From sequence record PP430152.1: DNA of 40,995 nt. The stretch is one strand, 5' to 3'. Below are positions 11,747-14,700 of the stretch, piece by piece (position 1 is the stretch's first letter; each line of letters begins with the position of its first letter). The stretch comes from Enterobacteria phage FtMidnight. Position numbers and translations under genes: made by a program. The notes beneath the pieces were generated by a model, which was not told where the DNA came from, ran no database searches, and saw only the letters and a program-made list of their open reading frames with translations.

Positions 11747-14700
11747 ATGGCTGATGAAAACATTGAAATTAAGGTACAGGACAAGGTTTCTGAATCAATT
11801 TCAACAAAGCTTAAAAACATTGCACGGGAAGCGCGGGGCGCTGATAGTGCTGTAAAGCTATTGCAAGAATCTTTGAACAGCGTTTCAGCTTCTGGTTTGT
11901 CACGCCTTCAAAATGAGTTGAACCGCACGGCAATTTCACAACAGCGGCTTGCAACAGAAACCCAAAAGACACAAGCGGCAATGGCGAACGTGGAAACGGC
12001 GCTTAACCGCGCTATTGCTGCTGAAACCAACGCGGCCACGGCGGCGCAACGCTTGGCAACCGAACAGCAAAAGACCGCACAAGCCGCCCAACGCGCCGCC
12101 GCTGCTGCTACCCAAAGCCAGACGGCAACCCAAAACCTTGCCACGGCCACAACACGCGCCACAACGGCACAAACCCAAGGGGCAACCGCCGCCCAACGCC
12201 TTGCCACGGAACAGCAACGCACAGCGCAACAGGCCGCGAACGCGGCGGCTGCAAATGACCGGGCGGCATTGGCCGCGTTGCGCCTTCAGCAAGCCCAAGA
12301 CCGGGCGGCAACCAGTAGCGCAAGCCTGACAAGCCGCCTTATGTCCTTGCGTAACATTGCAACGCTTGTTGTAAGCGCCTTGGGTATTAACGCCTATGCG
12401 AACATGACCAGCCAGTTTACAGACTTGGAAGCCCGTGTAACCCGCGTGGTTGGTTCGGCTGAAAACGCAACGGCGGTTCTTGGCGAACTTAATGCAATGG
12501 CGCGGCGTACTTACAGTGAATTTAATTTAACCGCTGAAAGCTACCTTGCAAATTCAACAGCACTTACAGAACTTGGCTACTCAACACGCCAACAGTTGGA
12601 CTACACAGAAGCTTTGAACAATGCCCTTGTTGTATCTGGTGCAAAGGCACAACAAGCGGAACGGGTGCAATATGCGTTGTCCAAATCTATGGCGCTTGGC
12701 GTGTTACGCGGTCAAGAACTAAACGCCGTAATTGAAACAGGCGGGCGCGTTGCTGAACTGATTGCGGATGAAATGGGTGTTGCAACTTCAGAACTTAGAC
12801 GGCTTGGCGCACAAGGCAAAATCACGGGTGATATTATTTACAGCGCACTTGCTGGAAACCTTGAACTTACACGAAAAGAAGCCGAAGCAATGCCAGCAAC
12901 AATTGCAGACGGGATGCTTTTAATTCGTGATGCAATTAGCGGTGCAATTACAGACTTTGACAAGATGACCGGCATTAGCGCAACGGTTGCTGAAGGTCTT
13001 GTTTGGATTGCTGATAATCTGAAGGTTGTTGCTTTCGCTGCTACTGTTGCGGGGTCTTCCCTGCTTGTTGCATTCGGCCCCGCTTTGCTTACCGCCCTGA
13101 AGGCTGCAACAGGGGCTGTATTGAGCTTTACGGCTGTATTGGCGGCTAACCCTATTGGCTTGCTTGTTGTGGGCATATCGGCGGCAATATCGGCCATTAT
13201 CTTCTTTGGCGATAAAATCAAGGTCACTTCAGACGGCATTGTAAGCCTGAAGGATGCCGCGCTTGCCGCTTGGAGTTACATTTCAGACGCTGCAACTTGG
13301 GCGGCTGAAACAATTTCTGAAATTTGGCAAAGCCTTTTTGGCAACATGAACTTTCAAATTGAAGGTTTTGGCGAGTTCTTTTCAGAAATTTTCAGCACAA
13401 TAACCAACATTGCAAAAACAGTAACTAATTTCATTATTGGTTATTACGTTGGTTTGTTCAATGCAATTAAGGTTGTTTGGCAAAACTTCCCCACACTAAT
13501 GAAAGGCTTTTTTGCTTCAGTTGTGAACTTTGGGGCAACCGCTGCTGAAACGCTTATGAATAGCTGGCAACTTGTGTTGCGCGGTATTTCTAGCTTGATT
13601 GCCCGCGTTGCGCCTGATACGGCGGCGGCTATTGATTCAGCCCTTGACCGGGTAAGTATCGAATTGCCCCGTATGGAAGTTGAACAAGGCGCAAAAGATG
13701 CGGCCAACGCCATTGGTGACGCTTTCAGGGAAAGCCAGCGTGATTACTTGGGCGCAATGGGCAATGACTTTAATCAACGTATGCGGAAGATTGCCGCTGA
13801 CCGCGCCGCGCTGGAAGCGGCAAGCGGCGTTGACTTGAACGCGCCCGGTGTTCGCACGGTAAGCGACATTGACGAAAACGCCGTCAAGGAACTGGAAAAG
13901 CTGAAAGAAGCCCTTGCAAAAGTACGGGCTGAAGTTTCGCCGTCTGCTGATGCACTGAAGCGCCTTTCTGATGCTCAAGACGTTTTGAATAAAAGTGTTG
14001 CCGCTGGCCTGATTGTGCAAAACGAAGCTGATTTAATTATGCAGCGTTTGCGCGAACGCTACCGCGATGCACTAGACCCCATTGGCGCGGTAAACCGTGA
14101 ACTTCAGCAAGAATTGCGCTTGATGAACATGCTTCCCGCCGCACGGGAAGTTGAACAGCGCATGATTCAAATTGAAAACAGTTTGCGTGAAAAGAATGTT
14201 GAATTAACCGCTGAACAAAATGCAGAAATTCGGGAACAACTTGCATTGATGCAAGAGCGTCAACGGGTAATGCAACAGGAAGCCGCTTTGCTTTCCCAAG
14301 GGTACGGCCAGCGCCAAGCCTTCATTGACCAGTTGCAGGCAATCAAAAACCTTCAAGCTGACCCGGCAAGCGGCTTTACCGCTGGTGACGCGGCGGGCGC
14401 TTCAATGGGTATGCTTGGCAATATGGGTATTGATACTTCCCAAATGCAAGGGCAGTTGAACGCACAACTTGAAATGCAACAAACGTATTTCAACCAGCTT
14501 GAAGAAATGCGCCGCAATAACCTGATTAGCGAACAGGATTATTCAAATGCCCGCGCTCAATTGGTTGTTCGTGAAAACCAATTGAAAACGCAACAGTTTA
14601 GAAACTTCTTTGATGGTTTGGCAAGCCTTCAGAGTTCAAACATTAGGGAACTTGCCCACATTGGTAAGGCCGCTGCTGTTACGCAAGCTATTATCAACAC

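Follow-up and report, generated by a model that had tools for sequence, protein, structure and literature searches.

The N-terminal heptad array of the phage FtMidnight tape measure protein and its length variation among relatives

Close to its N-terminus, the tape measure protein of Enterobacteria phage FtMidnight carries a segment rich in alanine, glutamine and threonine in which the motif QRLATE(Q)QKT recurs. Our analysis covered the whole 40,995-nt stretch of DNA in sequence record PP430152.1 (hereafter, the window), and the segment in question (positions 11936–12253) corresponds to amino acids (aa) 64–169 of a 1143-aa open reading frame (ORF). We consider it probable, at roughly three chances in four, that this segment is an old A/Q/T-rich heptad rod that has changed length through insertions and deletions (indels) of whole heptads over evolution, and that it is not an active hotspot of rearrangement in FtMidnight. 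A preliminary description of the same DNA had seen here a set of near-identical ~24-aa units with matching nucleotide repeats in the N-terminal coiled coil of a tape measure protein, and hence a hotspot for in-frame length change. The identity of the protein was upheld: judged by its profile matches, the product is a tape measure protein, with the Pfam domain TMP_3 (PF20155) at aa 217–406 (158 bits against a curated cut-off of 41, E value 3.1e-46) and the phrog_3336 profile ‘tail length tape measure protein’ matched over aa 119–1140 (E value 4.8e-237). The nature of the repeats and of their DNA proved to be different from what had been described.

Motif copies and heptad periodicity

Three full copies of QRLATExQxT are present, 35 and 49 aa apart (Table 1). 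A degenerate fourth copy, QNLATATTRA (QNLATATTRAT), shares the heptad register of the others, and when it is included the start-to-start spacings are 35, 28 and 21 aa (105, 84 and 63 nt), the intervening heptads being diverged. The triplication described earlier therefore holds as regards the number of copies, but these are not contiguous tandem units; Tandem Repeats Finder returned no array in 11936–12253, only a single 12-nt, two-copy row. When 24-aa units were compared, copies 2 and 3 shared 19/24 residues and can be called near-identical, whereas copy 1 matched either of them at 11/24.

Within aa 57–189, 16 pairs of 10-aa windows shared at least 8/10 residues, against 0.18 pairs expected from residue shuffles. 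None of 1000 composition-preserving shuffles attained 16 pairs, and a 10/10 match occurred in none. We therefore reject the notion that the repeats are chance matches within a low-complexity segment, which is extremely improbable even though 89 of the 130 residues at aa 61–190 are A, T or Q and other frames are also open over the stretch; moreover, the position of the motif is kept in relatives (see below). The overlapping open frames (104–126 aa) lie at 11908–12222 and 11936–12298 on the minus strand and at 11949–12329 on the plus strand. All three were without any PHROG match and most likely result from a codon composition (GCN, CAR and ACN) in which stops are scarce.

The copies are embedded in an array of 19 heptads (aa 57–189), in which R, K, N or Q nearly always fills heptad position 4 and A, L, T or V predominate at positions 1 and 5. 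Identity autocorrelation was raised at all multiples of 7 from lag 7 to lag 56 (z = 3.3–7.8), reaching its maximum at lag 49 (48.8 % identity), which amounts to a 49-aa super-period, and z remained below 1.2 at every lag that is not a multiple of 7. AlphaFold2, run on aa 1–215, predicted a single helix spanning aa 3–211 with a mean pLDDT of 89.4 (94–98 over aa 60–190). Together, the autocorrelation and this prediction point to one continuous helix with a heptad period, compatible with the N-terminal coiled coil of the preliminary description. In the heptad layout, the putative core positions 5 and 1 are occupied by L, T, V or A, and by A or E, which looks like an alanine/threonine-type core rather than a classical leucine core. 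Membership of the 11/18-residue aromatic repeat family, as found in TP901-1, was considered and rejected: there was no signal at lag 11 (z = 0.8) or lag 18 (z = -1.1), and aa 57–189 contain no Trp or Phe.

Divergence and age of the DNA copies

Nucleotide identity between the 24-aa copies was 33/72, 35/72 and 47/72 (46–65 %), and 66–72 % over a 29-nt core. Identical residues were encoded by the same codon in 4, 7 and 7 cases, against 4.6, 4.6 and 6.6 expected from the codon usage of the gene itself, suggesting that the similarity of the DNA goes little beyond what a similar peptide requires. The matching nucleotide repeats that had been reported were thus not recovered: the longest exact repeat in 11900–12320 is 12 nt (GCCGCCCAACGC, two sites separated by 105 nt or five heptads). 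Exact repeats of at least 9 nt number five in this region, with spacings of 42, 63, 105, 147 and 168 nt, all of which are multiples of 21 nt.

Comparison with other phages allowed the copies to be placed in time. Copy 1 matched its positional counterpart in the relatives P0007 and P0003 at 18/22 residues, but copies 2 and 3 within the FtMidnight gene at only 11/22; copy 3 matched its counterparts at 19–20/22, and copies 2 and 3 matched each other at 17/22. As counterparts across phages are more alike than copy 1 is to the other copies in its own gene, the duplications predate the split between these phages, which now share an overall identity of only ~43–47 % in the tape measure protein. To judge from the codons, synonymous sites between the copies are saturated and the peptide is held by selection, and with copies older than the phage divergence the proposal that near-identical nucleotide repeats drive a hotspot here loses its basis.

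These data also bear on a rival explanation, namely that the copies are recent, near-identical nucleotide duplicates that recombine or slip at a high rate in FtMidnight and so produce mixed tail lengths within a population. In-frame exact repeats of 11–12 nt are indeed present, 9-mer sharing in the region modestly exceeds that in a codon shuffle (13 pairs vs 4.9, with 3.6 % of shuffles attaining 13), and a 9-nt repeat sufficed for a 63-nt deletion in a relative (see below). However, the low nucleotide identity, a codon sharing close to expectation, the lack of an array in Tandem Repeats Finder and the age of the copies all speak against this explanation, as does the constancy of the segment in near-identical genomes; we regard it as unlikely.

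Conservation and length change among relatives

Our picture of the family is drawn from the best 120 of 648 homologues in a full-length protein search, and 98 relatives have the conserved DRAALAALRL segment, which served as the reference point for array length. The nearest known phages were KL1, PA73/Ab26/Kakheti25, PaMx42 and Xanthomonas or Stenotrophomonas relatives, at 38–45 % identity. A protein search with the N-terminal 215 aa alone gave six matches, and we suspect that the low-complexity composition may defeat the word index. Megablast comparison of the gene with 50,697 phage records gave no match, the collection either lacking FtMidnight or being older than it.

Conservation within the protein is highest in the array, where mean identity is 71.5 % (96 relatives), compared with 27–46 % for the downstream regions, 59 % for aa 1–56 and a background of ~18 % within the array region. 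Furthermore, a motif copy is positioned exactly 21 aa before DRAALAALRL in 92/98 relatives. Such constancy, together with the retention of the peptide over saturated synonymous sites and the contact with DNA made by the tape measure N-terminus in DT57C (PMC10713586), would be compatible with the motif being a sequence-specific docking element for a chaperone, the tail completion protein or the packaged DNA end, length change then being secondary. On the other hand, motif copy number ranges from one to at least four among apparently intact relatives (P0046 and P0033 have one), the alanine-rich composition raises the identity values, and TP901-1 kept its infectivity when an 11-aa repeat was swapped for alanines (PMC5099701), although that repeat belongs to a different family. 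A docking role is therefore a tentative suggestion that we would give perhaps one chance to three against.

The distance from the start of the protein to DRAALAALRL ranged from 107 to 282 aa among the 98 relatives, with a modal value of 149 aa and a value of 170 aa in FtMidnight. In those relatives that have both DKV and DRAALAALRL, the spacing of these two reference points fell into 16 classes, with a mode of 138 aa and the others off by 7n or 7n+1; we attribute the additional residue to a one-residue indel (SA-SGL vs SASSGL) upstream of the array. Although the N-terminal segment makes up only ~13 % of the protein, it accounts for 62 % of the total length variance (r = 0.77).

Two comparisons illustrate how such changes may arise. 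The genes of P0004 (1194 aa) and P0008 (1173 aa) share 97.5 % identity, with a single 63-nt indel between them, the ends of which are a 9-nt direct repeat (ACCGCAGCC); as read from the two sequences, a 63-nt deletion between 9-nt repeats is a classical slippage signature. The FtMidnight N-terminus, in turn, aligns with that of P0007, its closest relative in this part (75 % protein identity), with gaps of exactly 49 and 7 aa. P0007-type arrays contain two ALNRAV.AE copies 49 aa apart, and the gap in FtMidnight joins them at ETALNRAIAAE (Table 1). Because most long-type relatives, including the distant P0050 and P0111, span this gap, the 49-aa event appears to be a contraction in the FtMidnight lineage.

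Stability among near-identical genomes

A cluster at 90 % identity comprised three proteins (that of FtMidnight, P0001 and P0122) from contigs of 40–41 kb, all of 1143 aa, the latter two showing 10 and 15 substitutions relative to FtMidnight. Apart from FtMidnight itself, public assemblies of metagenomes and read archives contain two near-identical genomes (contigs of 40,879–41,201 bp and 40,057 bp). In a metagenome copy, L001, the gene carries 40 nucleotide differences, none of which falls in 11900–12320. Scans of metagenomes and viral contigs returned one further near-identical genome (L001, the same as L046), all others being at most 43 % identical.

Variation in array length was found only among relatives that are at most 47 % identical to FtMidnight, and inside their own subgroups. 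A comparison of tape measure length across relatives, which the preliminary description had called for, thus gives a divided answer: array length varies in distant relatives, but as the protein is 1143 aa long in all three near-identical genomes, it is only through the distant ones that repeat number ceases to be invariant. Likewise, the segment stands as the main site of in-frame length change in the relatives but not as an active hotspot in FtMidnight, where there are no head-to-tail copies, no high nucleotide identity and no copy-number difference in close relatives. The sequences suggest that the array is not active as a hotspot in this phage, or only weakly so.

Proposed model and expected effect on the tail

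We propose that the array forms the N-terminal rod of the ruler, with 19 heptads inside one predicted helix and three diverged copies of the motif. By analogy with solved siphophage tails, the tail lumen would contain three tape measure chains wound into a parallel coiled coil, in which the array would be at the end nearest the head and each residue would contribute ~1.5 Å to the ruler; in DT57C, the tape measure protein adopts a three-stranded coiled-coil structure whose N-terminus lies beside the DNA (PMC10713586). The length of the array would shift over evolutionary time through in-frame indels of whole heptads. As the sole microhomologies lie in heptad register, rare slippage would leave reading frame and heptad phase intact, and the coiled coil would probably be disrupted in out-of-register products, such that selection would reinforce the heptad steps. 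FtMidnight would then possess a contracted array, 49 and 7 aa shorter than that of its closest N-terminal relative. With the copies kept alike by selection on the peptide, and not by recent duplication, the array would be a weak substrate for rearrangement, offering microhomology only.

A helical ruler of 1.5 Å per residue is established for lambda and TP901-1 (PMC5099701). At this value, 1143 aa would correspond to a tail of ~171 nm, and the 56 aa missing relative to P0007 to ~8.4 nm, or roughly two tube rings if the ring spacing of ~42 Å in DT57C (PMC10713586) applies.

Several points weigh against the model of a heptad rod changing by whole heptads. The AlphaFold2 model was of one chain, computed with no alignment, and the helix is a prediction only. 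Relative P0033 has a deletion of 20 aa, which is not a multiple of 7. Among pairs that are at least 90 % identical, 2/22 distinct indel events fall in the array and 20/22 elsewhere, and large indels (29, 57 and 7 aa) also occur outside it, making the array not the sole variable site. The direction of the 49-aa event was assigned by parsimony, with no tree. Finally, published tail lengths do not scale cleanly with the protein (KL1, ~160 nm and 1272 aa; DLP1, ~175 nm and 1175 aa; DLP2, ~205 nm and 1187 aa); these values are noisy and inconsistent with simple scaling, and so neither support nor decide an effect on tail length.

Feature coordinates and genomic context

The positions of the features discussed above are collected in Table 1.

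Table 1. Features of the tape measure gene and its N-terminal array, in window coordinates
Feature	Position	Strand	Residues and remarks	Basis
Tape measure protein gene	11747..15178	+	1143 aa; product exactly identical to WZB35697.1 (P0121), annotated as FtMidnight tape measure protein	
Heptad array	11915..12313	+	aa 57–189; 19 heptads, A/Q/T-rich	heptad layout, autocorrelation
Motif copy 1, QRLATETQKT	11942..11971	+	aa 66–75	motif search
Junction of putative 49-aa (7-heptad) contraction relative to P0007-type arrays, ETALNRAIAAE	11993..12025	+	aa 83–93	alignments
Motif copy 2, QRLATEQQKT	12047..12076	+	aa 101–110	motif search
12-nt exact direct repeat	12083..12199	+	copies at 12083 and 12188	
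Degenerate fourth copy	12131..12160	+	aa 129–138	
Motif copy 3, QRLATEQQRT	12194..12223	+	aa 150–159; starts 21 aa ahead of DRAALAALRL	
Conserved segment DRAALAALRL	12257..12286	+	aa 171–180	
Other exact repeats of at least 9 nt	12136/12199, 12257/12299, 12062/12209, 11959/12127	+		
TMP_3 domain	12395..12964	+	aa 217–406; adjoins the array on its downstream side	Pfam match

The tape measure gene is positioned within a tail module, 3′ of a -1 frameshift chaperone pair with one gene in between. The two chaperone ORFs (10545–10973 and 10994–11344) match the two halves of phrog_8233 and follow a tail protein gene at 8935–10479; a canonical -1 slippery heptamer (A AAA AAC) is located at 10964–10970, directly 5′ of the TAA stop of the first chaperone ORF. 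The intervening gene (11253–11741) encodes a protein resembling tail completion or Neck1 proteins (phrog_169), in the place taken by gp20 in KL1. As listed, the gene begins with a TTG inside the chaperone ORF, and an ATG further in (MAKDLL...) may be the true start. Directly 3′ of the tape measure gene are two adjacent genes (15179–16180 and 16180–17091), both matching phrog_687 (‘structural protein’), which are probably tandem paralogues of the distal tail module.

Different parts of the tape measure protein have different closest relatives. In the TMP_3 region, FtMidnight is 66 % identical to P0002 and ~25 % identical to P0003, P0007 and P0004, whereas in the N-terminal array the latter three are closer (76–83 %) than P0002, suggesting intragenic recombination and a mosaic protein (aa 190–700).

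Short tandem repeats were also observed elsewhere in the window. An AT-rich stretch at 35404–35600 contains overlapping repeats with periods of 4–26 nt at 35404–35464, a period of 8 nt at 35521–35551 and 3.6 copies of ATTTACT at 35576–35600, and may represent an origin or regulatory region. Short GC-rich tandem repeats are clustered at 29103–29224, among them an 18-nt unit present 2.1 times at 29149–29185 (95 % matches).

Comparison with other tape measure proteins and implications

According to its published description, FtMidnight is an F-pilus-dependent siphovirus, the first such tailed phage to be shown, and is kin to phages whose receptor is the type IV pilus (PMC11015023). Its tape measure protein belongs with those of KL1/PA73/Ab26/PaMx42-like siphophages (Septimatrevirus and relatives) and metagenomic homologues within phrog_3336, with which FtMidnight shares TMP_3 and the gene order, including the extra gene. 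The KL1/PA73-like proteins also have in common with it the MADENI...DKVS start, the QRLATEQQRTA motif and DRAALAALRL; overall identity to this group is, however, only 38–47 %. At 1143 aa, the FtMidnight protein is among the shorter ones (most relatives have ~1166–1330 aa and a few 973–1128 aa), combining an array of intermediate length (170 aa, against a group mode of 149 and a maximum of 282) with a short remainder of 973 aa. The receptor differs as well, being the F pilus in FtMidnight and the type IV pilus in the KL1/PA73-like group (PMC11015023).

Outside this group, the closest parallel is with the 11/18-residue Trp/Phe repeats of TP901-1 and mycobacteriophages, which are likewise internal repeats in a helical ruler whose gain or loss alters length and which have been proposed to ease duplication and deletion (PMC5099701). 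The FtMidnight array differs from the TP901-1 type in its period (7/49 rather than 11/18), in its lack of aromatic residues and in its location, which is at the very N-terminus and not mid-protein. Trimeric coiled-coil tape measure proteins have been resolved by cryo-EM in the T5-like phage DT57C (PMC10713586) and in JBD30 (PDB 8rk3). The JBD30 chain matches aa 165–463 (E value 9.4e-13), that is, the TMP_3 region and not the repeat array. In both DT57C (PMC10713586) and JBD30, as in FtMidnight, a long helical N-terminal end would be expected by the head or the DNA, the oligomeric state in FtMidnight being taken by analogy.

Tape measure repeats and their role in length are already well known, and it is the period, the lack of aromatic residues and the N-terminal site that differ here. 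Belcaid et al. (2011) reportedly dealt with tape measure repeats and length change. A survey of homorepeats and tandem repeats in tape measure proteins found that alanine-rich tracts and repeats add to length variation and invoked replication slippage (PMC13585406); it presents bulk statistics, without the FtMidnight motif, heptad steps or the KL1/PA73-like phage group. Our literature search found no description of heptad-stepped indels in the KL1/PA73-like group, and the available part of the FtMidnight paper makes no mention of tape measure repeats (PMC11015023).

A more ambitious interpretation would give the array a conserved function, beyond that of a spacer, at the head-proximal end of the ruler throughout this group of pilus-dependent siphophages, with the whole-heptad copy number tuning tail length stepwise. 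We consider this improbable. If true, the R/Q/T-rich surface could hold the DNA end or dock a chaperone or the tail completion protein, and the contracted array and short tape measure could belong to the adaptation by which FtMidnight came to use the F pilus instead of type IV pili.

On the reading of an old heptad rod, the gain and loss of whole-heptad blocks would be a commonplace route to a different tail length in phages. As the repeats in the protein appear to have been kept by selection while the DNA diverged, a repeat at the peptide level need not be a recombination hotspot. The practical value of the finding is modest, although in-register sites, such as 12083/12188, could serve to engineer tail length in FtMidnight, the sole F-plasmid-dependent tailed phage known so far. 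For FtMidnight and the KL1/PA73-like phages, the array would mark where tail length was adjusted, in steps of 7 aa (~1 nm).

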